The position numbers were made by a program, and so were the translations under genes. Source: Acidobacteriota bacterium (lineage in GTDB: Bacteria > Acidobacteriota > Vicinamibacteria > Vicinamibacterales > SCN-69-37). Taken from it: DNA of 24,000 nt. Below the pieces are notes generated by a model. That model saw nothing but the letters and a program-made list of their open reading frames with translations, had not been told where the DNA came from and made no database searches. Below are positions 1 to 23,883 of the stretch, piece by piece. The stretch's first letter is position 1; every line of letters starts with the position of its first letter. The stretch is from positions 875-24,874 of the forward strand of contig JBLNGH010000339.1 of NCBI GenBank assembly GCA_050264575.1, read 5' to 3'.

Positions 1-2992
1 TGAAATCGCCTTCGCTGAGCAGCACCTGGCCCAGATCGTACGCGCCGTGAATCCGCGTCAGCTGCAGGCCATCGGGCGCCTGTCTGCCAAGCCGTTCGAT
101 CGTCGTCATGAGCTGATCGCGGCCGGCCAGCAGCGTCTGGATGAGAGTCGATGTGCCCGCGGGTGCGCGCTCGGCGGCCGAGCCGAGCGCGGCGAGCGTC
201 GAGTCGGTCTGCCGCCGTGTGCGTGAGACGAGCGCGCTGGTCCACTCGGCATCGAGCGCCGCGGTGCCGAACTCGGAGACGGCCTCGTCGCCGGCGAGCG
301 TGAGGTGCAGCTCGGCGGTGCGCCGTCCCAGCGTGGATGCCGCCTCGAGCGCGGAGCCGACCGTCCGCCGGGCGGCTTCCGGCACGTCTCCGGCCGAGAG
401 GGCTGGCGGTCGATCCCGCTGCGTCTCGCTCACGTCCCACGCGATCGCGCTCTCGAAGTAGCGCTCGAGCTCGCCGATCGCCTGGCGCCAGCCGTCCATC
501 TGATGCGGCACGAACGCGTGCAGGATCGCCAGCGTGGTCGTTTCGCCTGCCGTCGACGTGTACGCGATTGTCCCGGCCAGTCGCGGCGCGCGCGGGAAAT
601 GCGCGCGGTCCGTCAGGAAGCGGCCCATTTCGACTTCGTGATTCGGCCCCGGCCACAGCCGCCGCACCAGCTTCAGCACGAACCGCTCGCCAAACCGGAT
701 CGACGAGTTCGCGCGTTCGACGCTCGGGCTCACCGGCGCCAGATCGCCGTCCGGTGCCTGGGTCCGGATTTCGTCGAACACAGGCGTGCGCGATCCCTGC
801 AGCTGTCCGTGCCGCATGTCGGCGCTGCGCGTTTCGCCGATGACGGAGAACACCTCGCGCGCCTCGTCCGGATCGAGCGATGCATGCAGGATCCCTTTTG
901 CCGCGCCGGCAATTCGAGCGACGATGCCGTCTGGCGATTCCTGGACGATCACGTCAGCATGGGTGCCCGACGCCATCGCCAGCGGCACGAAGTAGCGATC
1001 CTCGCGGCCGTCCTCGAACTTGACGGCGAGGATCGTCGCCATGACCGGTTCCTTGCCGCCGCGCAGCGTGCTCCACTCGACGATTCTGGCGTCGGCGATC
1101 GCCGTGCCGCGCTTCTGGAACCAGCGCTGCCTGGCGAGGAACGGCGCCAGGTAGCGGCGCTCGAGCAGCGATCGCGCGCTGCCGGCCAGCGTGCGCGACC
1201 AGTCCTCGCCGAGCAGCACCGGCAGCGTCTCGATCTCCGATTCAGCGGCCGGGGCCAGCGGCCGGGCGGTCACCGGCGCCGGCGCCTGTCGCTTCAGCTC
1301 CAGCCAGTAGAACCCGTACGGCGCAAGCGTCAGGAAATACGGCGTCTCGCCGATGCGCGGGAGGTCGGTGCTGCCCGACATCTCGATCGGCACGAGACCC
1401 GAATACTTCGACAAATCCAGCGACACGGCCTGCATCGTGCGCGCCATGTTGGCGACGACGAGAATTGGATCCTCGGCATCGAGCCGGCGAATGAACGCGA
1501 AGACCCGGCGGTTTTCGGGACGGAGCAGCTCGATCGTCCCTCGTCCGAAGGTGCGATGGCGCTGGCGCAGCGCGATCAGCCGTCGCGTCCAGTTGAGGAG
1601 CGAATGCGGCGAGCGCTCCTGCGCCTCGACGTTGACGGACTGATATCCGTAGACCGAATCCATGACCACCGGCGCGTACAGCCGGGCCGGATCGGCGCGC
1701 GAGAAGCCACCGTTGCGGTCCGCGGTCCACTGCATCGGCGTCCGTACCGCGTTGCGATCGCCGAGGTACACGTTGTCACCCATGCCGAGTTCGTCGCCGT
1801 AATAGATGACCGGCGTGCCCGGGAGCGAGAGCAGCAGCCCGTTCAGCAGCTCGATCCGCGCCCGGCTGTTCTCCATCAGCGGCGCGAGCCGGCGGCGGAT
1901 GCCGGCGTTGACGCGCATCTGCGGGTCGGCGGCGTACGCCTGGTACATGTAGTCGCGCTCCTCGTCGGTCACCATTTCGAGCGTCAGCTCATCGTGGTTC
2001 CGCAAAAAGATCGCCCACTGACAGCTGTCGGGGATCTCCGGCGTCTGGTAGAGGATTTCGCTGATGGGATGGCGGTCTTCCTGCCGCATCGCCATGTACA
2101 GCCGCGGCATCAGCGGGAAATGAAAGGCCATGTGGCATTCGTCGCCGTCGCCGAAGTACGCGCAGACATCCGACGGCCACAGGTTCGCTTCCGCCAGGAA
2201 CATCCGATCGTGATAGCGCCCGTCCAGCTCGCGCCTCAGATTGCGGAGGACTTCGTGGGTTTCCGGCAGGTTCGCGCAGCTCGTGCCCTCGCGCTCGATC
2301 AGGTACGGCACGGCGTCGAGCCGCATGCCGTCGACGCCTTTGTCGAGCCAGAAGCGCATGACGCGCGTCACCGCTCTGCGGACCTGCGGGTTGTCGAAGT
2401 TCAGATCCGGCTGATGGTGGAAGAACCGGTGCCAGTAGTATGCGCCGGCCAGCGGATCCCACGTCCAGTTCGAGCGCTCGGTGTCGCTGAAAATAATCCG
2501 GACGCCCGCGTATTTCTGATCGGTATCGCTCCAGACGTAGTACTCGCGCTTGCGCGATCCGGCGCGGGCCCGGCGCGCCGCCTGGAACCACGGATGTTGA
2601 TCCGAGGTGTGGTTGATGACCAGCTCGGTGATGACGCGCAGCCCTCGCTCGTGCGCCTGATCCAGAAACGTCCGGAAGTCTTTCAGCGTGCCGTACGATT
2701 TGTGGACGCCTTCGTAGTGCGCAATGTCATAGCCGTCGTCGCGAAGCGGCGACGGGTAGAACGGCTGCAGCCAGATGCACGAGACGCCCAGCGACTGGAT
2801 GTAGTCGAGCTTGCGCGTCAGCCCGGCGAAATCGCCGACGCCGTCGTCGTCGCTGTCGAAAAAGCCCCGGACGTGGACCTGGTAGATGACCGCGTCTTTG
2901 TACCAGAGGCTAGGGGAGGTGTCAGGAGGACGGGGGTCGATTATGGAAAACTCGCCGGACTGCCTGGTAATGGTGTCCGGCGAGTTTCCCAC
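1..2992 (-). CDS. treS: Trehalose synthase (GH13, TreS) with C-terminal maltokinase-like domain; partial, 3' end runs off the left edge of the window
   Basis: Absent from the ORF track because it has no stop inside the window. Manual reverse-strand translation gives the canonical TreS blocks LWYKDAVIYQVHVRGFFDSDDDGVGDFAGLTRKLDYIQSLGVSCIWLQPFYPSPLRDDGYDI, VINHTSDQHPWF, GVDGMRLDAVPYL, FLAEANLWP, FLRNHDELTLEMVTDEERDYMY and LLLSLPGTPVIYYGDELGMGDN. The same frame at bp 2-58 reads TRIHGAYDLGQVLLSEGDF, which resembles the maltokinase HGDxHLGQVL block. The start is set at the in-frame GTG 2992-2990, the only canonical start upstream of the conserved WYKD block, so the start is uncertain. Confidence 0.85.
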   Translation of the reverse strand, partial: MGNSPDTITRQSGEFSIIDPRPPDTSPSLWYKDAVIYQVHVRGFFDSDDDGVGDFAGLTRKLDYIQSLGVSCIWLQPFYPSPLRDDGYDIAHYEGVHKSYGTLKDFRTFLDQAHERGLRVITELVINHTSDQHPWFQAARRARAGSRKREYYVWSDTDQKYAGVRIIFSDTERSNWTWDPLAGAYYWHRFFHHQPDLNFDNPQVRRAVTRVMRFWLDKGVDGMRLDAVPYLIEREGTSCANLPETHEVLRNLRRELDGRYHDRMFLAEANLWPSDVCAYFGDGDECHMAFHFPLMPRLYMAMRQEDRHPISEILYQTPEIPDSCQWAIFLRNHDELTLEMVTDEERDYMYQAYAADPQMRVNAGIRRRLAPLMENSRARIELLNGLLLSLPGTPVIYYGDELGMGDNVYLGDRNAVRTPMQWTADRNGGFSRADPARLYAPVVMDSVYGYQSVNVEAQERSPHSLLNWTRRLIALRQRHRTFGRGTIELLRPENRRVFAFIRRLDAEDPILVVANMARTMQAVSLDLSKYSGLVPIEMSGSTDLPRIGETPYFLTLAPYGFYWLELKRQAPAPVTARPLAPAAESEIETLPVLLGEDWSRTLAGSARSLLERRYLAPFLARQRWFQKRGTAIADARIVEWSTLRGGKEPVMATILAVKFEDGREDRYFVPLAMASGTHADVIVQESPDGIVARIAGAAKGILHASLDPDEAREVFSVIGETRSADMRHGQLQGSRTPVFDEIRTQAPDGDLAPVSPSVERANSSIRFGERFVLKLVRRLWPGPNHEVEMGRFLTDRAHFPRAPRLAGTIAYTSTAGETTTLAILHAFVPHQMDGWRQAIGELERYFESAIAWDVSETQRDRPPALSAGDVPEAARRTVGSALEAASTLGRRTAELHLTLAGDEAVSEFGTAALDAEWTSALVSRTRRQTDSTLAALGSAAERAPAGTSTLIQTLLAGRDQLMTTIERLGRQAPDGLQLTRIHGAYDLGQVLLSEGDF

Positions 2993-3012
2993 AATCGACG
3001 CCCCGTCCCCTC
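2925..3012. repeat. About 88-nt imperfect palindrome (arms 2925-2960 and 2975-3012, 14-nt loop) with GGACGGGGG / CCCCGTCC termini. It lies between the BNR-gene stop and treS and covers the predicted treS start codon.
   Basis: Left arm is GGAGGACGGGGGTCGATTATGGAAAACTCGCCGGAC. The reverse complement of the right arm is GAGGGGACGGGGCGTCGATTGTGGGAAACTCGCCGGAC. Hand pairing shows only a few mismatches or bulges. Confidence 0.7.
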
Positions 3013-5393
3013 TACTTAATGGAGCTCGCGTCGAGCGCCCAGATGCCCCGCCCGTACGTCGAGATCACGAGCATCTGGTCGCGCGGCTCGAACTGCAGGT
3101 CCGACACCTGGTTGGACGGCAGATTGCCGCCGAGCACTTCCCAGCGTTCGCCTCCGTTCGTCGAGACGTAGACGCCGAAGTCGGTGCCGACGTAGAGGAT
3201 GTTCGGGTTGCGCGGGTCTTCGCGAATCACGTTCACCGGACCCACCGGGATGTTCCCGGCGATGCTGCGAATCGTCCTCCCGTTGTCGGTCGACTTGTAG
3301 ATGTAGACGCCGAAGTCGTCGTCTTCGCGGCCGCGCTGCGTGATGTAGACCGTACCTTCGTCGTGCTGAGAGGGGACGACGCGCGAGATCCAGCGTCGGA
3401 CCGGGAGCTTGGATGTCAGTTCCGTCCACTCCTTGCCCGTATCGAGCGTGACGTGCAGCCGGCCATCGTCGCTGCCGACGTAGAGCAGTCCCTTGCGCTT
3501 CGGCGATTCGGCGAGCGCCACGATTGTCTGGTACGGAATCGCCGTCGGATTCTCGCCCATCTGCTCCTTCTTGTTGTCGGTCAGATCCGCGCTGATCTTT
3601 TGCCAGCTGTCTCCGCGATTCTCGGATCGATAGACCGACTGGAAGCCCGCGAAGATGATGCTGCCGTCGTGGGGCGAGACGATGATCGGCGCCATCCATT
3701 GCGCGCGCAGTTCCTGATCCGGATCCTTCGGCTGAATCGGCGTGTTGGTGCCTCCGCGTCCGCGGCCGCCGCCGCGGCCGCTCGGATCGGGCGGCGGGGT
3801 CGCGCCGAGGTCGGTCCGGCTGAAGTTGCCGTAGAAGCCGTGCGAGTACACGATGTTCGGATTGGTCGGATCGATCGCGTGGTTCGATCCTTCGCCGCCA
3901 GGCGCATTCTCGAAGTCGACGGCCGGGACGGCGCCACGCCCCTTGCCGGTATCGACGCGGCCGCGCCGGCTGCCGTGATCCTGAATCGATCCGTAGGCCC
4001 AGACGGGCGTGTTCGAATCGAGCGTCACGTTGTAGAACTGCGCGCCGCCCGCCGACACGGCAAATTTCCAGGTCTTGCCGCCGTCCTCGGACTGATAGAA
4101 GCCGCCGTCGTTGTTGTTATAGAGAATCGACGTGTTGCCCGGATCGATCCAGAGACCATGGTGGTCGCCGTGCATCCCGGTGACGCGCGAGAACGTCTGA
4201 CCGCCATCCCGGGAGACGTTGAGACCCAGGCCCATCGTGTAAATCGTTTTTTCGTCTTTCGGATCCACCCGGATCTGTCCGAAGACCCACCCGTACGTGC
4301 CGGAATGGCCGTTGAGGTAGTCAATCGTGGCCTGAGTCTTTCGACTGGTTTGCCGCCAGGTCTTGCCTCCATCGTCGGTCCGGTAGATGTCGGCACCCTT
4401 GATGAAGCCTTTGCCCGCCGGCATCGGCCGGCCGTACGCGTCATTGGTGCCCGGCTTCGGCACCACGCCGATCTCGTAGTTGTCGACGAAGGCGTACAGC
4501 ACGTTCGGGTTCGATCTGGAGACGTCGATCCCGATGCGGCCGCGGAACTCGGGCGCGGGAAGGCCCTGGCTCACGTCGTTCCAGGTCTTACCGCCGTCGG
4601 TCGTCTTCAGGATGCCGCCTTCTTTGTAGCCGGGCTCGACGCGCGGATCCGACCACTTGCGCCGCACGCGCTGCCAGAGTGCCGCGTACAGCGTGTTGGG
4701 GTCGCGCGGATCCATCACGAGATCGATCGCGCCGGTGCGCGGGCTGCGATACAGCACCTTTGTCCACGTCTTGCCGCCGTCGGTCGTCTTGAAGACGCCG
4801 CGCATCTCGTTGTCCGTCCACTCGTGGCCGGAAGCGGCCACGTACACGATGTCAGGGTTGGTCGGATGCACGAGGATCCGCGCGATCGTCTGCGTATCGG
4901 TCAGCCCCATGTGCTGAAAGGTCTTGCCGGCGTCGGTGGACTTGTAAATGCCGACCCCCGGCATCGACGCGCGAAAGATATTCGCTTCGCCCGTCCCGAC
5001 CCACAGAATGTCGGGGTTCGAGGGCGCGACGGCGAGATCGCCGACGCTCGTCGACGGCATGTCGTCGAAGATCGCCTGCCACGTTGCGCCGTTGTCATCG
5101 GTTTTCCAGACGCCGCTCGTCGCGTAGCCGGCGTAGATGCGCCGTTGACCGTTCTTGTCGGCGACGGCCGTATCCGTGGAGCGGCCGCTCACGTTCGTGG
5201 GACCCACGTACATCCATGAGGCCGATTTGTACGGCGACGCATCGCGCATCGAGCGATACGTGTCGTAGCCCTTGCGCAGGACTTCGGCATCCGCCCTGGC
5301 GGCCTGCTGCGCCCGCAGAGCGAGCGGAATGCTGCAGAGTGCCGCGAGAAGGACCAGCGAGAGGCGGCTGGCGCGCCCGAGGTGTCGGGTCAT
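3012..5393 (-). CDS. Secreted BNR/Asp-box repeat beta-propeller protein (sortilin/VPS10-like or GH74-like WD40/YVTN/BNR family)
   Basis: At least 10 Asp-box motifs (S/T-x-D-x-G-x-T-W/F) are present: TDDNGATW, STDAGKTF, TTDGGKTW (twice), RTDDGGKTW, SRDGGQTF, SEDGGKTW, ENRGDSWQ, LDTGKEW and STNGGERW. The start is moved to the internal Met at 5393 (MTRHLGRASRLSLVLLAALCSIPLALRAQQ), which gives a classical signal peptide. The track ORF start at 5531 would overlap the divergent cysteine desulfurase gene. Confidence 0.8.
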   Translation of the reverse strand: MTRHLGRASRLSLVLLAALCSIPLALRAQQAARADAEVLRKGYDTYRSMRDASPYKSASWMYVGPTNVSGRSTDTAVADKNGQRRIYAGYATSGVWKTDDNGATWQAIFDDMPSTSVGDLAVAPSNPDILWVGTGEANIFRASMPGVGIYKSTDAGKTFQHMGLTDTQTIARILVHPTNPDIVYVAASGHEWTDNEMRGVFKTTDGGKTWTKVLYRSPRTGAIDLVMDPRDPNTLYAALWQRVRRKWSDPRVEPGYKEGGILKTTDGGKTWNDVSQGLPAPEFRGRIGIDVSRSNPNVLYAFVDNYEIGVVPKPGTNDAYGRPMPAGKGFIKGADIYRTDDGGKTWRQTSRKTQATIDYLNGHSGTYGWVFGQIRVDPKDEKTIYTMGLGLNVSRDGGQTFSRVTGMHGDHHGLWIDPGNTSILYNNNDGGFYQSEDGGKTWKFAVSAGGAQFYNVTLDSNTPVWAYGSIQDHGSRRGRVDTGKGRGAVPAVDFENAPGGEGSNHAIDPTNPNIVYSHGFYGNFSRTDLGATPPPDPSGRGGGRGRGGTNTPIQPKDPDQELRAQWMAPIIVSPHDGSIIFAGFQSVYRSENRGDSWQKISADLTDNKKEQMGENPTAIPYQTIVALAESPKRKGLLYVGSDDGRLHVTLDTGKEWTELTSKLPVRRWISRVVPSQHDEGTVYITQRGREDDDFGVYIYKSTDNGRTIRSIAGNIPVGPVNVIREDPRNPNILYVGTDFGVYVSTNGGERWEVLGGNLPSNQVSDLQFEPRDQMLVISTYGRGIWALDASSIK

Positions 5394-5417
5394 GGTCTTT
5401 AGCTTATGACAACGTAG

Positions 5418-5468
5418 GGCGGACTGATTTCCAAGTCCGCCACCGGCGGATTTGGCGATCAATCCGCC
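5418..5468. promoter_or_regulatory. Two adjacent 24-bp palindromes (candidate dimeric-regulator operators or twin hairpins) in the divergent intergenic region
   Basis: GGCGGACT-gatttcca-AGTCCGCC lies at 5418-5441 and GGCGGATT-tggcgatc-AATCCGCC at 5445-5468. Both have perfect 8-bp arms, 8-nt centres and the same half-site GGCGGAnT. Confidence 0.4.
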
Positions 5469-5485
5469 CCACATGCAGGTAGGAC

Positions 5486-5491
5486 TACAAT
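5486..5491 (+). promoter_or_regulatory. Candidate -10 box TACAAT, 7 nt upstream of the cysteine desulfurase ATG (possible leaderless mRNA)
   Basis: The sequence is TACAAT cgacgca ATG with no Shine-Dalgarno-like purine run in between. No convincing -35 element was found. Confidence 0.3.
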
Positions 5492-5498
5492 CGACGCA

Positions 5499-6659
5499 AT
5501 GCCACACGCGCCGGTCTATCTCGACTACCACGCGACCACGCCGGTCGATCGCCGGGTGGTCGACGCGATGCTGCCGTACTTCACCGAGTGCTTCGGCAAT
5601 CCCGCCTCATCCGGTCATCAGTGGGGATGGAAGGCGCAGGAAGCGGTGGAGCAGGCGCGCCGGGACGTCGCCGCGCTCATCGGCGCAACGGCGCGTGAGA
5701 TCGTGTTCACGAGCGGCGCCACGGAATCCAATAACCTGGCAATTCAGGGTGGTGCCGCCGAGGCGCCGCCCGAACGTCGTCACGTCGTCGTCTCGGCGAT
5801 CGAACATAAGTCGGTGCTCGAAGCGGCGGCCCGGCTCGAACGGAGCGGCTGGCGCGTGACGGTCCTGCCCGTTCGGAAAGACGGGATGATCGATCTCGAG
5901 CCGCTCGACCGCGCCGTCACGGACGACACGGCGCTCGTGAGCGTGATGGCCGCCAACAATGAGATCGGCGTTCTCCAGCCGCTCGCGGAGATTGGCGAGA
6001 TCGCGCACGCGCGCGGCGCGATTTTCCACGTGGATGCTGCTCAGGGCGCGGGCAAGATTCCGATTGACGTCGGCGCCATGCACGTCGACCTGCTCGCGCT
6101 GACGGGTCACAAGATGTACGGGCCCAAAGGATGCGGCGCGCTGTTCGTGCGCAAGCGCACCGAGCTGGCGCCGCTCATCATCGGCGGCGGGCAGGAGCGC
6201 GGGCTGCGATCGGGAACCTTGAACGTCCCTGGCATCGTCGGGCTCGGCGCCGCGTGCGCGATCTGCCAGCGCGAGATGCCGCAGGAAGCGATCAGGATGC
6301 GTCAGCTTCGTGACCGGCTGCTGAGCGGGCTGACGTCGCAGATCGACGGTGTGATCGTCAACGGATCGCTCGAGCATCGGCTTCCGAACAACCTTCACGT
6401 CAGCTTCAGCGGCGTGGATGGAGAATCGCTGCTCATCGGCATCGGCGACATCGCGGTCTCATCCGGATCCGCGTGCAGCTCCGCGTCGGCGACGCCGTCC
6501 CACGTCCTCCGCGCCATCCTCGGCGACGACGTGCCGGCGGCGGCAATCCGGTTCGGGTTGGGCCGGTTCACGACCGACGACGAGATTGACTACGCCGTCG
6601 AAAAATTTGCGACAGTCGTTCGACATTTGCGAGGCGTTGCGCCCGCAAGTCGATCATGA
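5499..6659 (+). CDS. iscS: Cysteine desulfurase, class I (IscS/NifS family, PLP-dependent)
   Basis: The N-terminus reads VYLDYHATTPVD..MLPYF...FGNPASSGHQWGW. Other family blocks are FTSGATESNNLAI, the PLP-lysine block LTGHKMYGPKGCGALFVR, and the active-site loop SSGSACSS. The length of 386 aa is typical. Confidence 0.9.
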   Translation: MPHAPVYLDYHATTPVDRRVVDAMLPYFTECFGNPASSGHQWGWKAQEAVEQARRDVAALIGATAREIVFTSGATESNNLAIQGGAAEAPPERRHVVVSAIEHKSVLEAAARLERSGWRVTVLPVRKDGMIDLEPLDRAVTDDTALVSVMAANNEIGVLQPLAEIGEIAHARGAIFHVDAAQGAGKIPIDVGAMHVDLLALTGHKMYGPKGCGALFVRKRTELAPLIIGGGQERGLRSGTLNVPGIVGLGAACAICQREMPQEAIRMRQLRDRLLSGLTSQIDGVIVNGSLEHRLPNNLHVSFSGVDGESLLIGIGDIAVSSGSACSSASATPSHVLRAILGDDVPAAAIRFGLGRFTTDDEIDYAVEKFATVVRHLRGVAPASRS

Positions 6660-7592: not shown

Positions 7593-8783
7593 ATGACCTC
7601 ACCCCTTCGCGACATTCGACGTCGCGAATTGGGCGGGCCGGACCCGCTCGATCGCCGTCTGGGGATTCCGCCGCAAACGCCGCTCACCTGGCTGCGGTCG
7701 CTCTTGTTCACGCGATCGGCGCTCGGGCTCGCGCCGTCGCTCACGCCCGCGGTGATCTTTCTGCCGGTCGGCGTGCTGCTCGGTCCTCATGCGCTGAACG
7801 TCCTCTCGCCGACCGTCCTCGGCCGGCTCGATCTCGCCGTGACCATTGCGCTCGCCGTGCTCGGCGTGCTCGTCGGCATTGCGCTCGGCCGCGAGATCCG
7901 GTCGGCGACGCGTCTGTTCATCGCCGCCAGCCTCGAGAGCCTCGTGACGATTGCCTTCGTCACCGGCGCGACGATCTACTTCGCGCGGGTGACCGGATTG
8001 CCGCTCGGCGCGCCGATCGCCGCGTTCGGACTCGCGCTCGGTCTCTGCGCGTCGGCATCGTCAGCCACGTCTGCCGATCCCGATTCGGAGCCGTCGGCCG
8101 AAGTCGCGACGCGCGTTGCCGATCTCGACGACGTCGTGCCGATTGTCGTCGCGACGATCGGGTTCGGTCTGCTGGCGCCTGTGCCGATCGAGGACACGCT
8201 CACCCTCGCGCTCGCGACCGTCCTGTCCGGGCTTGCGGTCGGCGCCATCGGCTGGCTGCTCTTCGAGCGTGCGGAGTCCGGCGCCGAGCGCGCGGTGTTT
8301 CTGCTTGGCGCGCTCGCGCTGGCGGGCGGCGCCGCGGCCATGCTTCGCGCCTCGCCGCTGGCTGTCGGGCTCATCGCCGGCCTGTGCTGGACGATCGCGC
8401 CGGGCCGCGCCGATCGGATCGTGCAGGACGACCTCGGCAAAGTGCAGCACCCGCTGGTGGTCCTGCTGCTCGTGACCGCCGGCGCCCTGTGGGCGCCGTC
8501 CGTGGTCAGCTTGTGGCTTCTGGCGCCGTATCTCCTCTTTCGTCTGGCGGGCAAAGTCGCCGGTGCCTGGGTCTCGTCGCGAATTGCCGATGTGAGCGCC
8601 GCCGATCTCGCGGCGTTCCTCGTGCCGCCCGGCGTTCTGGCCGTGGCGTTCGCGCTCAACTTCCGCCAACTCCTTCCGCCTGACGCCGGGGACACGCTGC
8701 TCTCGGCCGTCGTGATCGGCACCGCGGCGTTCGATCTGTTCGCGCTGGCCGTCGTGCCTCACTGGAGACGAAGGCCGACATAG
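7593..8783 (+). CDS. Polytopic membrane protein, cation/proton-antiporter-like (Na_H_exchanger-type)
   Basis: The ORF has about 11-12 hydrophobic spans. An N-terminal signature LPVGVLLGPHALNVL and a mid-protein block ADLDDVVPIVV recall CPA-family helices. It looks like a paralog of the N-terminal half of the next ORF. The start is uncertain. Confidence 0.6.
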   Translation: MTSPLRDIRRRELGGPDPLDRRLGIPPQTPLTWLRSLLFTRSALGLAPSLTPAVIFLPVGVLLGPHALNVLSPTVLGRLDLAVTIALAVLGVLVGIALGREIRSATRLFIAASLESLVTIAFVTGATIYFARVTGLPLGAPIAAFGLALGLCASASSATSADPDSEPSAEVATRVADLDDVVPIVVATIGFGLLAPVPIEDTLTLALATVLSGLAVGAIGWLLFERAESGAERAVFLLGALALAGGAAAMLRASPLAVGLIAGLCWTIAPGRADRIVQDDLGKVQHPLVVLLLVTAGALWAPSVVSLWLLAPYLLFRLAGKVAGAWVSSRIADVSAADLAAFLVPPGVLAVAFALNFRQLLPPDAGDTLLSAVVIGTAAFDLFALAVVPHWRRRPT

Positions 8784-8976
8784 CCCCATGCAGCGTGTTG
8801 CCGAGATCGCTGTCTCATTGTTTCCCGTCGGATGGCCCGCAGGCGCGCCAACGGCGCGCCTCGCCGGAGCGGAGCGGGGCGGAAGGGCCCCCGCGAGCGA
8901 ACGGCGAAAGGGGGTCCGGGGGACGAATGTCCCCCGGTTGAACAAGAGGCGGAGGCCAACCTAGCCCCATGCGGCG
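8769..8976 (+). repeat. 27-nt direct repeats (8769-8795 and 8950-8976, 23/27 identical), each carrying an ...RRRPT-TAG-CCCC-ATG stop/start junction, flanking a 154-nt spacer with two GC hairpins
   Basis: The repeats are CGAAGGCCGACATAGCCCCATGCAGCG and CGGAGGCCAACCTAGCCCCATGCGGCG. The hairpins are GGCGCGCC-aac-GGCGCGCC (8842-8860) and CCGGGGGAC-gaat-GTCCCCCGG (8916-8937). A 58-codon ORF (8788-8964) runs exactly from the first ATG to the second TAG. Confidence 0.6.
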
Positions 8977-11683
8977 GCTCAGTGCGCTTGCCATCACGAT
9001 CACGCTTGCCTGGTTCGTCCTCGTCCGGATGGGCGGTCAGAACGCGAGCGCGACCGCGCTCGGGCTGGGCGTGGCGCTCGTCTCGGCGTCGATCGTCGGG
9101 TGGCTCTTCGAGTTTCTCCGGCTCCCGCGCATTACCGGCTATCTGATCTTCGGCCTCGTCTGCGGTCCCGCAGTCGCCAACCTGATCACGGAACCAATGG
9201 CGCGCGACCTGCGCGTCGTCGGCGGCTTCGCGATCGGCATCATCGCCTTCATCGCCGGCTTGCAGGTGAACTTCGCCAGTCTCCGTTCACGGCTTCGAGC
9301 GATTGCGACGGTGACCGTCACGGCGGTGTCGCTCTCATGGGCGGGCGTGACGGCGGTGGTGTTCGTCCTGTGGCGCTGGCTGCCGTTCGGCGCCGAGCTG
9401 TCGGGCGCGGAACGAGCCGCCGCGTCGGCGCTCATCGCGACGCTCGTCATCGGCGTCTCGCCCATCCTGACCACGGCGGTGATCGCCGAAAGCCGTGCCC
9501 GCGGGCCGCTTTCGACGATGGCCACCGCGGTTGTCGTCTGCGCCGAGCTTCTCGTCATCGTCTTCTTTGCGATCGCGCTGCAGCTCTCGAGGACGGCATT
9601 CGGCACTCAGCCGGCGCAGGGCTTCGAGCTCGCGATCTCGACCGGCTGGGCGACGGCGGGATCGGTCGCGTTCGGCGGGCTGCTGGGATCGCTGTTCGCG
9701 CTGTATTTGCGTTTTGTCGGGCGCGAGGTCACGGTCGTGCTCCTCGCGCTGTTCGCGCTCTTTACGGGCCTTGGCGCGCGATGGCACTTCGAGCCGCTGC
9801 TCTCCGGGCTGGCGGCCGGGCTGGTCGTGCAGAACGTGATGGGGCAGGCGGGCGACGTGCTGCGCGACTCGATCGCGCGCGGCGCCATGCCCGTCTTCGT
9901 CCTGTTCTTTGCCGCCGTCGGCGCGTCGATGCAGGTCGATGCGGTCGCGACGCTCGGGATTACGGCGCTCGCGCTCTCGCTCGTGCGCGCCGTGCTGCTC
10001 CGCGCCGGCGCCAAGTTCGGCGTGCGGGCGGCCGGCGTCGAAGCGCCGGAGACCCATCTGCTCTGGCGGTCCTTTATATCCACGGCGGAGATCACGATCG
10101 GTCTGACCACGCTCGTCGTCACCGAGCATCCGGTCTGGTCGGGCCAGCTGCAGACACTCATGATCGCGATCGTGGCCATGAACGAGCTCGTCGGGCCGAT
10201 CGTCTTCCGGGCCACGCTGGCGCAGCTTCGCGAGATCGGCGGCGGTGGCGGCAGCCTCGTCGTCGTGTCCAATCGTGAGCCGTGGGTGCACGACTACGCG
10301 CCTGATGGATCCATCCGCGCGCGCCCGACGCCCGGCGGCGTCTCCGTCGCGCTCGATGCGCTGATGCGCGAACGCGGCGGCGTGTGGATCGCGCACGGCG
10401 CCGGCAGCGCGGATCGCGAAGTCGTCGACGAGCGAAGCTCGATTTACGTCCCGCCCGACTCGCCGTCCTACCGGCTGCGGCGGCTGTGGCTGTCACCCGA
10501 AGAGGAAGAGCGGTACTACGCGGGCTTCTCCAACAGCGCGTTGTGGCCGCTCTGTCACCAGGCGCACGTGCGTCCGGTGTTCAAAGCCGAGGATTGGGAA
10601 GCGTACAAGTCGGTGAACCGGTTGTTTGCGGAAGCGGTCGCGCTCGAAGCGCCGCCGGACTCGTCCGTGTTCCTGAACGACTACCACCTCTCGCTCGTCG
10701 CCAGGTACATGCGCGAGCGGCGGCCGCTCCTGCGCTCCGCGCTGTTCTGGCACATTCCGTGGCCGGACGCCGATCGTCTCAGAATCTGCCCGTGGCGCAA
10801 GGAGATCCTCGAAGGGCTCCTCAGCAACGATCTGCTCGCATTCCAGCTGCCGCGCGATCAACGCAACTTCCTCGTCTCGGTCGCCGACGAGCTGGGCGCC
10901 TCCGTCTCGGGCGAGACCGTGTACTTCGGCGATCGGCCGGTCCGCGTGCTGGCGATTCCGATCGGCGCCGATTTCGATCGCATTACCGAGATTCTGGCGG
11001 ACCCGGACCTGCCGAGCGAGATGCGCCGGCTCGCGCGCGACCTGAAGCTCGAGGACAAGGTCGTCGGTGTCGGCGTCGATCGGCTCGACTACACCAAGGG
11101 GATTCCCGAACGGATGGCCGCCATCGATCGCGTGCTCGCCGCGCGGCCGGACCTGGCCAAACGATTCGTGTTCGTCCAGATTGGCGTGCCGTCGCGCACC
11201 GATGTGCCGGCGTATGCCGACATCACCGCGGAAATCGACGAGCAGGTGGCGCGCATGAACGAGAAGTACGGCAACGGGCCCGACAATGGTCCCGTCCGCT
11301 ACGTGAAGCAGGCGTTTCAGCTGCCGGAGCTCGTCGCCGTGTACCGCCTCGCGCGGTTCTGCATCGTCTCGTCGCTCCACGACGGCATGAATCTCGTCGC
11401 GAAGGAGTTCGTCGCCGCGCGCGACGATCTCGACGGGATCCTGATTCTGAGCGAGCTGGCAGGCGCGGCGCAGGAGCTGTCCGAGGCGCTGATCATCAAC
11501 CCGTACGACGAGCGGGGATTCACTGACGCGGTGGCACGCGCGATCGACATGCCGGCCTGGGAGCGGCGGCGCCGGATGCAGGCGCTCCGGCGGCGCGTGG
11601 CCGGACGCGACGTGCTGGCCTGGGCGTCGGACATTCTCGATCGGCTCGAACGGCGGAAAGGTACGGGGTTTCTCGCTGGGTAG
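8969..11683 (+). CDS. otsA: Fusion protein: N-terminal cation/proton-antiporter-like polytopic membrane domain (about aa 1-415), GGGGG linker, and C-terminal trehalose-6-phosphate synthase (GT20, OtsA)
   Basis: This is a single 904-codon ORF. The N-terminal half is hydrophobic and carries ITGYLIFGLVCGPAVANLI. The C-terminal half has the OtsA blocks LVVVSNREP, GGVSVALDAL, YYAGFSNSALWPLCH, FLNDYHL, FWHIPWP, GVDRLDYTKGIPERM, VQIGVPSRTDV, SLHDGMNLVAKEFVAA and LSELAGAAQELSEALIINPYD. Confidence 0.85.
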   Translation: MRRLSALAITITLAWFVLVRMGGQNASATALGLGVALVSASIVGWLFEFLRLPRITGYLIFGLVCGPAVANLITEPMARDLRVVGGFAIGIIAFIAGLQVNFASLRSRLRAIATVTVTAVSLSWAGVTAVVFVLWRWLPFGAELSGAERAAASALIATLVIGVSPILTTAVIAESRARGPLSTMATAVVVCAELLVIVFFAIALQLSRTAFGTQPAQGFELAISTGWATAGSVAFGGLLGSLFALYLRFVGREVTVVLLALFALFTGLGARWHFEPLLSGLAAGLVVQNVMGQAGDVLRDSIARGAMPVFVLFFAAVGASMQVDAVATLGITALALSLVRAVLLRAGAKFGVRAAGVEAPETHLLWRSFISTAEITIGLTTLVVTEHPVWSGQLQTLMIAIVAMNELVGPIVFRATLAQLREIGGGGGSLVVVSNREPWVHDYAPDGSIRARPTPGGVSVALDALMRERGGVWIAHGAGSADREVVDERSSIYVPPDSPSYRLRRLWLSPEEEERYYAGFSNSALWPLCHQAHVRPVFKAEDWEAYKSVNRLFAEAVALEAPPDSSVFLNDYHLSLVARYMRERRPLLRSALFWHIPWPDADRLRICPWRKEILEGLLSNDLLAFQLPRDQRNFLVSVADELGASVSGETVYFGDRPVRVLAIPIGADFDRITEILADPDLPSEMRRLARDLKLEDKVVGVGVDRLDYTKGIPERMAAIDRVLAARPDLAKRFVFVQIGVPSRTDVPAYADITAEIDEQVARMNEKYGNGPDNGPVRYVKQAFQLPELVAVYRLARFCIVSSLHDGMNLVAKEFVAARDDLDGILILSELAGAAQELSEALIINPYDERGFTDAVARAIDMPAWERRRRMQALRRRVAGRDVLAWASDILDRLERRKGTGFLAG

Positions 11684-21597: not shown

Positions 21598-21659
21598 CGG
21601 GACCTCCTCGGCGTGTCTGCGCGCCGATCCGCGCTGAGTGATTCAGCGTCGGGTGAAGG

Positions 21660-21945
21660 ACGGCCCGGTGACCAGGTATCCTGACTCGCGAATCATCGCC
21701 GGCATCCGCGTCTTCCCACGCCGTGGAAGTCCCACGCGCGCAGTGACGGCCGGGGAATCGATCTATCGATTCATCGATCTATCGATCTATTGAAAATCAC
21801 TTGTCCTGGCACGCAAGGTCTTCAAAAGATCGATAGATCGATAATCCGGTAGATCGATTCACCCAGTCATTTTGGGACGCCGACTCCTCGCTGACAGTGG
21901 CGGCACCGTGTGGGATTTGCACCCACTTCCCTTGCCGCCGGGCGA
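21660..21945 (-). promoter_or_regulatory. Cobalamin (AdoCbl-type) riboswitch in the 5' leader of the TonB-receptor/ABC operon
   Basis: On the minus strand, AAGGGAAGTGGGTGCAAATCCCACACGGTGCCGCCACTGTCAG (plus 21891-21933) matches the GGGAA...GGTG.AAATCC...CCGCCACTGT core. GGCCGTCACTGCGCGCGTGGGACTTCCACGGCGTGGGAAGAC lies downstream and resembles the GCCACTG...GGGAAG element. The B12 box AGTCAGGATACCTGG is at plus 21672-21686. GCCCGG (21938-21943) can pair with CCGGGC (21662-21667) as a closing helix. A candidate -10 box TATACT is at plus 21965-21970. Confidence 0.8.
21752..21864. repeat. 113-nt near-perfect palindrome built from ATCGAT-containing 8-nt units (ATCGATCT / ATCGATAG), embedded in the riboswitch between the core and the B12 box
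   Basis: The plus strand reads GGGGAATCGATCTATCGATTCATCGATCTATCGATCTATTGAA, then a 25-nt loop, then TTCAAAAGATCGATAGATCGATAATCCGGTAGATCGATTCACCC. The arms are complementary except for one 7-nt internal patch, one mismatch and one bulge. Confidence 0.85.
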
Positions 21946-22017
21946 ACGTCGGTTGTCTGGCCGGAGTATAGCATGTCAAAATGAGCCGACAGTTCGACTC
22001 GAGCCCCACGGAGGAGC

Positions 22018-22525: not shown

Positions 22526-22555
22526 GATAATGGGTAATTGGTAATCGGGTAATGG
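22526..22555 (+). repeat. Tandem 7-8-nt repeat GATAAT / GGTAAT x3 in the yjbQ/mqnE-like intergenic region, overlapping the first possible ATG
   Basis: Read directly: GATAATG GGTAATT GGTAATC GGGTAATG. Confidence 0.7.
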
Positions 22556-23733
22556 GAGCCAAGAGCTCTGAGAGGCCCTTCATGCTCCGTGCCCCTTCAT
22601 GCGATCTCGCTGACATCGATGTCAAGCTGACCGCCGGCGAACGGCTGTCGTTCGACGACGGCGTGCGTTTGTTCGAACATCCGGACCTGCACGCGCTCGG
22701 CGTGCTCGCCAACCGCGAGCGCGAGAAGCGTCACGGCGCGGTCACGTACTACAACTACAACCTGCGTCTCGAAGCGACGAACGTCTGTTCGGCGAGCTGC
22801 CTGTTCTGCTCGTTTGCGCGCCTCCGTCCCGGCGACCCCGGCGCGTACACGATGTCGATCGAGCACGTGCTGGACAAGGTTCGCGAGCGCGCCGATCAGC
22901 CGCTCACCGAAATCCACATCGTCAACGGCCTGCATCCCGGGTTGCCGTTCGACTACTACATCGACCTCCTCCGCGGGATCAAGCGGCTGCGGCCCGACCT
23001 TCATCTGAAGTGCTTCACGGCGGTGGAGATCGCGTTCTTCGCCGACACGTACGGCATGACGGACGTGGCCGTGCTGCGCGCGCTCATGGACGCGGGCCTC
23101 GATTCGCTGCCAGGCGGCGGGGCGGAGATCTTCGCCGAGCGCGTCCGGCGCAAGATTTGCCACGACAAGGCTGACGCGGATCGGTACCTCGCGATTCATC
23201 GCGCGGCGCATGCGCTCGGCCTGCGCTCGAACATCACGATGCTCTACGGGCATATCGAGACGATGGAGGAGCGGGTCGATCACATGCTGCGCACGCGCGC
23301 GCTGCAGGACGAGACCGGCGGACTGCAGGCGTTCATCCCGCTCGCGTTCCATCCGGACAACAACCAGATGCGCAAGCTGCCGGCGCCGACGGCGAGCGAT
23401 ACGCTGCGCGTGCACGCGGTCGCGAGATTGATGCTCGACAACGTGCCGCACATCAAGGCGTTCTGGATTGCGGCCGGCGTCGAGGTCGCGCAGCTGGCGC
23501 AATGGTACGGCGCCGACGATCTCGACGGCACGGTGCAGGAAGAGCGGATCTACCACATGGCCGGTTCACGCACGCCGGAATCGCTGTCGACCGCGGACAT
23601 CCGGCGCCTGATCCTCGCGTCCGGCCGGACGCCGGTCGAACGCGACACGTTGTACAACCGGGTGTACGGGGGACGGGGGTTTTCAACAGATCCGCCTGGT
23701 CGGGGCCGGAGGTCCCTCGGGCCTCCGGCCTGA
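22552..23733 (+). CDS. mqnE: Radical-SAM futalosine-pathway enzyme, MqnE-like (aminodeoxyfutalosine synthase; MqnC not excluded)
   Basis: The radical-SAM cluster motif is NVCSASCLFCSF (CxxxCxxC). Other blocks are TEIHIVNGLHPGLPFDYY, LHLKCFTAVEI, LDSLPGGGAEIF, NITMLYGHIETMEERVDH, LQDETGGLQAFIPLAFHP and DDLDGTVQEERIYHMAG, ending in RTPVERDTLYNRV. The GTVxEE block favours MqnE by eye. The alternative start ATG 22582 has a better SD (GAGAGG, 6-nt spacing). The last 21 codons and the stop lie inside a palindromic element. Confidence 0.75.
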   Translation: MGAKSSERPFMLRAPSCDLADIDVKLTAGERLSFDDGVRLFEHPDLHALGVLANREREKRHGAVTYYNYNLRLEATNVCSASCLFCSFARLRPGDPGAYTMSIEHVLDKVRERADQPLTEIHIVNGLHPGLPFDYYIDLLRGIKRLRPDLHLKCFTAVEIAFFADTYGMTDVAVLRALMDAGLDSLPGGGAEIFAERVRRKICHDKADADRYLAIHRAAHALGLRSNITMLYGHIETMEERVDHMLRTRALQDETGGLQAFIPLAFHPDNNQMRKLPAPTASDTLRVHAVARLMLDNVPHIKAFWIAAGVEVAQLAQWYGADDLDGTVQEERIYHMAGSRTPESLSTADIRRLILASGRTPVERDTLYNRVYGGRGFSTDPPGRGRRSLGPPA

Positions 23734-23767
23734 CCTGTGCGGATCTGTGGAAAAACCCCCGTCCCCC
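23668..23767. repeat. 100-nt near-perfect extended palindrome with GGGGGACGGGGG / CCCCCGTCCCCC termini, overlapping the 3' end and stop codon of the mqnE-like gene
   Basis: The outer arms are GGGGGACGGGGGTTTTCAACAGATCCGC (23668-23695) and GCGGATCTGTGGAAAAACCCCCGTCCCCC (23739-23767). The middle pair is GGTC/GACC. The inner pair is GGCCGGAGG (23704-23712) and CCTCCGGCC (23722-23730), with loop TCCCTCGGG. Confidence 0.85.
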
Positions 23768-23883
23768 TTGTAAACTGATCAGTGAGTCAAGTCCCGAGCC
23801 GGCGATAGCCGGGGGCCGAGGAGGCCCGGCGGGATCTTGGCATTTTTCATCTTTGGAGATTGAGAAAAATTTCACAAGCGGCC

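Follow-up and report, generated by a model that had tools for sequence, protein, structure and literature searches.

Two long hairpins lie in a stretch of 24,000 nucleotides (hereafter, the window) from an Acidobacteriota metagenome-assembled genome (MAG), one at the junction between a BNR/Asp-box gene and the trehalose synthase gene treS, and the other at the 3′ end of a radical-SAM gene. Both are probably, as a whole explanation, non-autonomous REPIN-like mobile elements that are mobilised by a RAYT (a tyrosine transposase associated with REPs, or repetitive extragenic palindromes), and the part of this explanation that concerns the nature of the hairpins themselves—REPINs, or dimers of a terminal inverted repeat (TIR)—is very likely to be right. 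The explanation is supported by the membership of the hairpins in a dispersed repeat family, the linkage of this family to a transposase gene, the covariation of the arms, the insertion polymorphism between species, and the conservation of the treS reading frame across the inserted copies. Each hairpin would represent a head-to-head pair of the TIR that flanks a RAYT-like gene of the HUH/Y1 (single-strand DNA) type. The copy at the radical-SAM gene (type B) would be a direct derivative, its arms being the transposase gene's own flanks, and the copy at treS (type A), in which the GGGGACGGG end accompanies the 9-nt box in inverted order, would be mobilised in trans by the same RAYT. By analogy with TnpA_REP and IS200/IS605 (PMC3116915, PMC6006769), this RAYT is expected to mobilise the hairpins as single-stranded DNA.

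The window lies on contig C339 of the source MAG (G000; 682 contigs, 6.05 Mb, 65.6% GC, 90% complete), and its TreS has its closest named relatives in Vicinamibacterales/Acidobacteriota MAGs (71–73% identity). The genomes searched for comparison comprised two of the same genus, G001 (10 contigs) and G002 (80 contigs), and about 70 of the same family; G015 represents a sister genus.

The earlier note on this DNA, which was made from the sequence alone, had described two long hairpins at 2925–3012 and 23668–23767 with common termini and different interiors, and both hold up when folded against 200 dinucleotide shuffles. Copy 1, with its core inside the palindrome 2925–3012, reaches −72.6 kcal/mol on the minus (gene) strand (2915–3022), compared to −32.5 ± 3.5 kcal/mol for the shuffles (z −11.6), and −68.5 kcal/mol on the plus strand (z −9.2); the sense strand is 4 kcal/mol more stable than the antisense strand via two G.U pairs. 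Copy 2 reaches −90.6 kcal/mol on the plus strand (23660–23775; z −10.1). Both copies end in GGGGACGGGG / CCCCGTCCCC, and their interiors differ. Neither hairpin matches an Rfam family at gathering score, the sole match in the window being a cobalamin riboswitch at 21654–21971, and no U-run (T-run) was seen after either copy on either strand, so they do not show the form of an intrinsic terminator. Given that the same element type is present at orthologous sites in two independently assembled genomes of the genus, the hairpins are not assembly artefacts.

The suspicion of the earlier note that these are palindromic elements of the REP/MITE kind (MITEs are miniature transposable elements with inverted repeats) with conserved ends is borne out by a dispersed family that has many copies and is split into subtype A (84 or 96 nt in most cases) and subtype B (~100 nt), to which copies 1 and 2 belong, respectively. 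Both subtypes hold the GGGGACGGG end and a 9-nt GTGGAAAA/TTTTCCAC box. In type A, the end motif is followed by a 5-nt linker, the GTGGAAAA box, and the inner stem, whereas in type B the box comes immediately after it and is turned the other way (TTTTCCACAG). A strict scan of the source MAG for the end motif yields five true hairpins, which fall into types A and B. This is an undercount, since several arms lie less than 100 nt from contig ends, and the relatives with few contigs show the real numbers, with about 10–23 type-A and 13–39 type-B copies per genome within the genus. A scan with arm patterns allowing up to 3 mismatches finds 2 type-A and 24 type-B arms in G000, 21 and 78 in G001, 37 and 26 in G002, and 3 and 28 in G015, compared to 0 matches for the same patterns reversed in all 71 family genomes. 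The further copies that the earlier note had proposed looking for are therefore far above chance. Across the family, type-B arms are present in 29 of the 71 genomes (12 of 24 genera) and type-A arms in 13. The arm consensus differs by species (G001 has GGGAC and G015 has GGGCC, for instance), the pattern expected from within-genome amplification.

Two inverted conserved ends around a variable spacer fold as one long hairpin in these elements, and the stem is maintained through change. In an alignment of 25 type-A copies over the 35-nt arms, 96.3% of the stem cells pair, and both sides have changed in 14 of the 35 pairs (70 cells), values that none of 500 shuffles reaches. The covariation score of 0.251 falls to 0.066 or less when the partner is slid by 1–3 columns. 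Linker variants private to single copies are identical in both arms. Moreover, both main type-A lengths (84 and 96 nt) are divisible by three, and none of the six frames of the conserved arms contains a stop.

A search with the Pfam Y1_Tnp profile (PF01797) links the type-B arms to a transposase gene. In G001, the match C1:1279937–1280275 lies between inverted type-B arms at 1279657 and 1280380 (unit C1:1279657–1280400), and in G015, the match C16:192399–192737 lies between such arms at 192185 and 192858 (unit C16:192185–192878). Type-B arms also bracket the transposase gene in G014 (C2:1271699–1272429) and G034 (C2:255449–256398), inverted arms around a RAYT-like HUH/Y1 gene being found in four genera, and a match on contig C46 of G002 holds a type-B arm on a single side. 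A paralogue on contig C6 of G001 is bracketed by a GGGTTAG variant of the arm. In the three genomes whose flanks were read (G001, G002, and G015), the transposase gene sits between purM and purN, and the HUH motif (HWH) and the tyrosine motif YVERN are present in these three genomes and in G000. Transposases of the TnpA_REP type are marked by HUH plus Y...N, as opposed to the Y...Q of IS200. Its sole NCBIfam match is the REP-associated tyrosine transposase (REP_Tyr_transpos; E 1.8e-18, profile positions 4–146 of 146), and its PF01797 score of 35.1 bits is above the 23-bit cut-off. A sequence search for relatives in the PDB found none.

Across the family, the repeat tracks this RAYT. Among the 37 family genomes that contain a close homologue of the RAYT (E ≤ 1e-55), 25 have type-B arms, compared to 4 of the 34 without one, and those four genomes are just 64–86% complete; within a single genus of 20 genomes, the arms occur in 8 of 9 and 1 of 11, respectively. 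As the genomes are kin, these counts are descriptive and carry no valid P value. Among the 13 genomes with type-A arms, 12 hold type-B arms and 12 hold a close RAYT homologue, the two exceptions being different genomes. Two other RAYT-like genes of G000 (C151:1192–1981 and C319:3733–4813) are bracketed by inverted repeats of 27 and 30 nt, which also form the arms of two further families of hairpins in G000, one marked by GACCTCGGGTT and the other, of 97 nt, by GGGGTCAGGTCTTGTATTGC; the genome thus hosts several repeat–transposase pairs.

Several points weigh against the RAYT-mobilised reading. The NCBIfam score of the RAYT (66.8 bits) is below the curated cut-off of 80, 12 genomes hold a RAYT homologue and no arm of the strict pattern, and although the RAYT between purM and purN is intact in the source MAG (contig C61), the arms beside it there are degenerate. 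Type A holds no transposase gene of its own: in G001 and G002, none of the type-A copies has a Y1 match nearby, on which ground a type-A-specific transposase gene was rejected, and its mobilisation would have to take place in trans. The REP halves headed by GT[AG]G were not found, as the arms are not self-complementary and GTAG precedes just 8 of 86 element ends. Finally, mobility is deduced from filled and empty orthologous sites between species, and the use of the treS start discussed below is suggested by the lack of an alternative and by a frame kept in three related, non-independent genomes.

The orthologous sites suggest that the elements spread and turn over as DNA. Where G001 or G002 has an element, the corresponding G000 site may be empty (L113, L130, and L133), hold a different palindrome family (L110 and L122), or, in the case of the convergent gene pair at L115, hold a small terminator-like hairpin instead of the type-A element of G002. 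The 3′ end of the radical-SAM (mqn) gene is a further example, bearing type B in G000 and type A in G002, both after the same codon, and a different word-palindrome in G001 after a longer native tail; no element is present there in G015 and G012. The relatives of this protein end in LYN(R/V)V plus 0–9 residues.

Elements would land in very short intergenic spacers, or replace one another there, their ends usually abutting a stop or start codon, and copies would persist where the neighbouring genes remain expressible. Of 86 element ends, 26 come immediately after TAA or TA(G), where an estimate made without shuffling would expect a few per cent in a 65% GC genome. The stop of a coding-like open reading frame (ORF) starts 2–4 nt ahead of the element in 12 of about 38 cases, and several start codons lie 0–6 nt outside an element end. 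Copies are found upstream of, downstream of, and inside genes. One of them, a 96-nt type-A copy in G002 (L119:499–594; G002:C16:127406–127497), lies in frame in a gene and follows a signal-peptide-like N-terminus with a good Shine–Dalgarno sequence and an ATG upstream.

Each of the three genomes of the genus carries a type-A element at its BNR–treS junction. An empty site, which the earlier note had suggested seeking among orthologous junctions, exists in the sister genus: in G015, the junction reads TAG-CGCC-GTG, with the GTG eight codons before a conserved W. The insertion would have removed this original start region. The earlier note had also proposed that copy 1 fills a 20-nt gap between the BNR stop and treS; the element is indeed there, and the gap between the stop and the GTG measures 19 nt. 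In agreement with its view that the GTG at 2992, paired in the 5′ arm, is the only plausible start of treS, the next in-frame ATG/GTG/TTG comes only after the conserved LWYKDAV motif, whose start is near 2906. In the three filled genomes, the arm GTG precedes the W by 29, 26, and 30 codons, in the treS frame and without intervening stops, and no other canonical start is available. Homology to TreS of relatives begins at residue 28–29 of the window ORF, and the Pfam Alpha-amylase domain at residue 38, the protein also holding Malt_amylase_C and Mak_N_cap. This GTG is hence fairly likely to be the real start of treS, with the G-run upstream acting as a possible Shine–Dalgarno sequence and 28 element-encoded residues being added to the protein.

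The three filled junctions match in their outer arms, whereas the inner stem and loop are wholly different yet paired. Each copy bears the diagnostic bases of its own genome (GGGTCTCG in G001 vs GGGGCTCG in G002), which implies that the BNR–treS site has been homogenised or refilled since speciation. In a member of another genus with BNR–treS synteny (L090; G018:C234:17984–21367), the junction holds a different, ATCGGGCGAT-like word repeat (at ~1400–1536), so that this boundary appears to have been colonised by unrelated repeat families across lineages.

In the helix predicted for the minus strand, both the GTG and the Shine–Dalgarno-like run are base-paired. The BNR–treS transcript would hence hold the treS start locked in a helix of ~35 bp that begins one base past the BNR stop. 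With the start sequestered in this way, treS would be expressed either through ribosomes that terminate on BNR and open the helix, or through initiation before the 3′ arm is transcribed. Coupling of treS translation to that of BNR is a tentative proposal and is, on balance, doubtful. A stronger version is improbable: that the type-A arm is a portable translation-initiation cassette (a G-rich run, a spacer of 6–8 nt, and a GTG), that the hairpins home to or replace each other at the same boundary nucleotides, repeatedly rewiring start and stop codons, and that the coupling of treS is obligatory or structure-gated.

A similar donation of a start codon is seen next to the transposase gene. In G001 and G002, purN takes its GTG start from the box of the flanking repeat, its product reading MEKSPVPL before the conserved AVLISGRGSNL. 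In G000 (C61:7700–7960), the purN frame is without a canonical start from the arm remnant, where PVPL is still encoded, to the start of the RAYT on the opposite strand.

The occupied junction could also be explained by a hairpin kept mainly as an RNA regulator of treS, whether as a thermosensor or coupling device that occludes the start, as an RNase III site, or as a point of ribosome stalling at the BNR stop, its being a repeat then having secondary importance. Such a role would fit the occupancy in three species with the frame kept, the pairing of the start codon and the Shine–Dalgarno-like run, and the more stable sense strand with its two G.U pairs. Liang, Rudd and Deutscher are said to have found in 2015 that, in E. 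coli, an upstream gene is translated less when a REP lies within about 15 nt of its stop codon. However, the same elements are present at dozens of unrelated sites upstream of, downstream of, and inside genes, the loop and inner stem are not conserved among the three species, and the sister genus does without any hairpin there. The genome-specific bases of the copies also point away from a conserved regulator and towards copies that were replaced or homogenised, making this explanation unlikely. A family-wide G.U bias on the sense strand, considered as a sign of RNA-level selection, was rejected: 3 G.U and 6 A.C were counted in 11 co-directional cases, which are too few mismatches and show no trend.

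Signals that serve the host, such as the bidirectional terminators, stabilisers of mRNA 3′ ends, or gyrase/IHF sites proposed for the REPs of E. coli, would account for the many copies right after stop codons and for the replacement of a terminator-like hairpin by a type-A element at L115. Nevertheless, neither window copy is followed by a U-run, copies also lie directly upstream of starts and in frame within genes, species within a single genus differ 2- to 10-fold in copy number, and the family tracks a transposase gene, all of which leaves this function with a slim chance. The long terminal inverted repeats, the small size, the dispersed copies, and an A preferred two bases outside the end (42 of 63 for type A) are, in turn, reminiscent of classical MITEs, deletion derivatives of insertion sequences with a DDE transposase, TIRs, and target-site duplications. 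In this case, though, the only kilobase-scale units with these ends carry a Y1 (HUH) gene rather than a DDE one, no consistent direct repeat flanks the copies, and the comparisons with empty sites reveal no clean duplication; a TGTA duplication that seemed possible at copy 2 was rejected because neither the other copies nor the empty sites support it. Membership among the DDE-derived MITEs was accordingly rejected and is very improbable.

The closest match among known systems is the REPIN–RAYT pair and, more exactly, the TIRtrons. Like those of REPIN–RAYT systems (Bertels and Rainey 2011, PMC3116915), among them REP/BIME of E. coli with TnpA_REP, the elements described here are ~80–110 nt long, with two inverted ends and a variable spacer folding as a long hairpin; they are present in tens of copies per genome, with compensatory stem changes common among them, as reported for REPINs (PMC3116915). 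The cognate Y1 gene keeps a fixed position on the chromosome between copies of the same repeat, and several repeat families coexist in one genome, each with its own RAYT. In contrast, the arms are not short GTAG-tagged palindromes and end in GGGGACGGG, the bracketed RAYT is found for type B and not for type A, many copies abut or enter coding sequence, and the host belongs to the phylum Acidobacteriota.

TIRtrons are RAYT-like genes (TIRYTs) flanked by long TIRs rather than by GTAG REPs, some of whose repeats share the motif GGGGWSAS and form moderate repeat families of monomers and dimers; a distinct TIRYT group has been described in the acidobacterial genera Koribacter, Terriglobus, Acidobacterium, and Granulicella (Di Nocera, De Gregorio and Rocco 2013, PMC3733652). 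The present family shares with them a Y1 gene with long non-GTAG TIRs that also form a repeat family, and TIRs that open with a G-rich motif. Its motif GGGGACGG fits the published GGGGWSAS consensus (PMC3733652) at 7 of 8 positions, and that of the sister family in G000, GGGGTCAG..., which flanks the RAYT of contig C319, fits it in full. The differences are the single departure from the consensus in GGGGACGG, the hosts, which are Vicinamibacterales-like MAGs, and the predominance of dimers with near-perfect 35-bp stems; the likeness to the published acidobacterial TIRs is by description. A CGTC-tagged REP family from the same paper, considered because the end contains CGTC, was rejected, as its members are 8–9 bp stems with no linkage to a transposase (PMC3733652).

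Rickettsia palindromic elements (RPEs) and intragenic REPs are also palindromic repeats that functional genes tolerate in their interior or at their ends and that are translated as an extra peptide. The N-terminus of treS, the C-terminus of the radical-SAM protein, and the in-frame 96-nt copy of G002 resemble them in this regard, although the sequences are unrelated and a copy here donates a start codon together with the N-terminus. REP termini often provide TAG stops to flanking ORFs, and start-codon donation by repeats is not mentioned in the same source, where the term 'start codon' does not occur (Di Nocera et al., PMC3733652). Correia/NEMIS, ERIC, and other MITEs likewise form co-transcribed hairpins near coding regions that can alter mRNA stability or translation (PMC3733652). 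Unlike the elements described here, which adjoin coding regions in a similar manner, they have DDE-type parents and target duplications in place of a Y1 partner and no visible duplication.

What goes beyond the ordinary behaviour of such repeats is the donation of start codons and the reuse of the same gene-boundary sites by different hairpin families. No new kind of system is revealed, as TIRtron-type elements are already known in Acidobacteria (PMC3733652). Nevertheless, the two odd gene ends of the window—the treS start and the radical-SAM tail—are explained as likely products of mobile repeats, and one repeat family of an uncultured soil lineage is tied to the transposase that probably belongs to it. 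Clear cases of start-codon donation are added (treS in three species and purN in two), and annotation of these genomes should allow for N- and C-termini that such elements encode. In addition, the refilling of the same boundary sites by different hairpin families makes the target choice of RAYT-type enzymes testable.

Table 1. Features of the window discussed in the text, with positions in window coordinates.
Feature	Position	Strand	Remarks
treS-mak fusion (trehalose synthase + maltokinase N-cap)	2–2992	−	Runs past the window edge; first 28 codons from the element
Type-A hairpin element, 85 nt	2926–3010	−	~35-nt arms, 14-nt loop; BNR–treS junction; aligns with 24 other type-A copies
GTG, probable treS start, in the 5′ arm (GTGGAAAA box)	2990–2992	−	Only canonical in-frame treS start; G-rich Shine–Dalgarno-like run 8 nt upstream
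TAG stop of the BNR gene	3012–3014	−	One base ahead of the first G of the element
BNR/Asp-box, sortilin-Vps10-like gene	3012–5531	−	Upstream of treS
Different dispersed repeat, ~100 nt	8840–8940	+	21 further copies in G000, 12 in G001, 32 in G002 (BLAST, 73–90% identity)
Radical-SAM gene	22552–23733	+	Last 22 codons and TGA stop (23731–23733) from the type-B element; Pfam domains reach residue 369, directly ahead of the element
Type-B hairpin element, 100 nt	23668–23767	+	Radical-SAM (CofH/MqnC-like) gene, 3′ end; G001 and G002 also have type-B copies (BLAST)

The earlier note had also listed a mini-version of the hairpins at 8916–8937. A 9-bp hairpin is present there, albeit a weak one (z −2.4, with 4 of 200 shuffles folding equally well), and its membership in the family was rejected, since it is the 3′ hairpin of a separate dispersed repeat of ~100 nt. 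This repeat, located between an ORF at 7593–8783 and a GT20 fusion gene, has a three-hairpin fold of −71.7 kcal/mol and no Rfam match.

Other palindromes abound in the source MAG, where an unbiased hairpin scan finds at least 168 long ones, many of them from other families. Their arms are often made of tandem words of 6–11 nt (AATCTG ~46, GATCTATCGAT 21, CATGAAGG 16, and AACTTAGAAC 14), with GGGCAAAGGGCAGAG and GGTTCCGGGG as further types, and they reach 300 nt and −215 kcal/mol (e.g., C118:25289–25582 and C345:2643–2940). One of these word-palindromes, of the GATCTATCGAT type, lies in G000 inside the region of the cobalamin riboswitch (RF00174, 48.8 bits, minus strand), upstream of a TonB-dependent receptor gene, and the orthologous leader in G001 holds a type-A element (L139).

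The GT20 fusion gene mentioned above (8969–11683, plus strand) is a single ORF of 904 residues that joins the membrane domain of a Na+/H+ exchanger (residues 38–417) to a GT20 trehalose-6-phosphate synthase domain (residues 430–894), and this exchanger–GT20 fusion lies in the neighbourhood of treS-mak.

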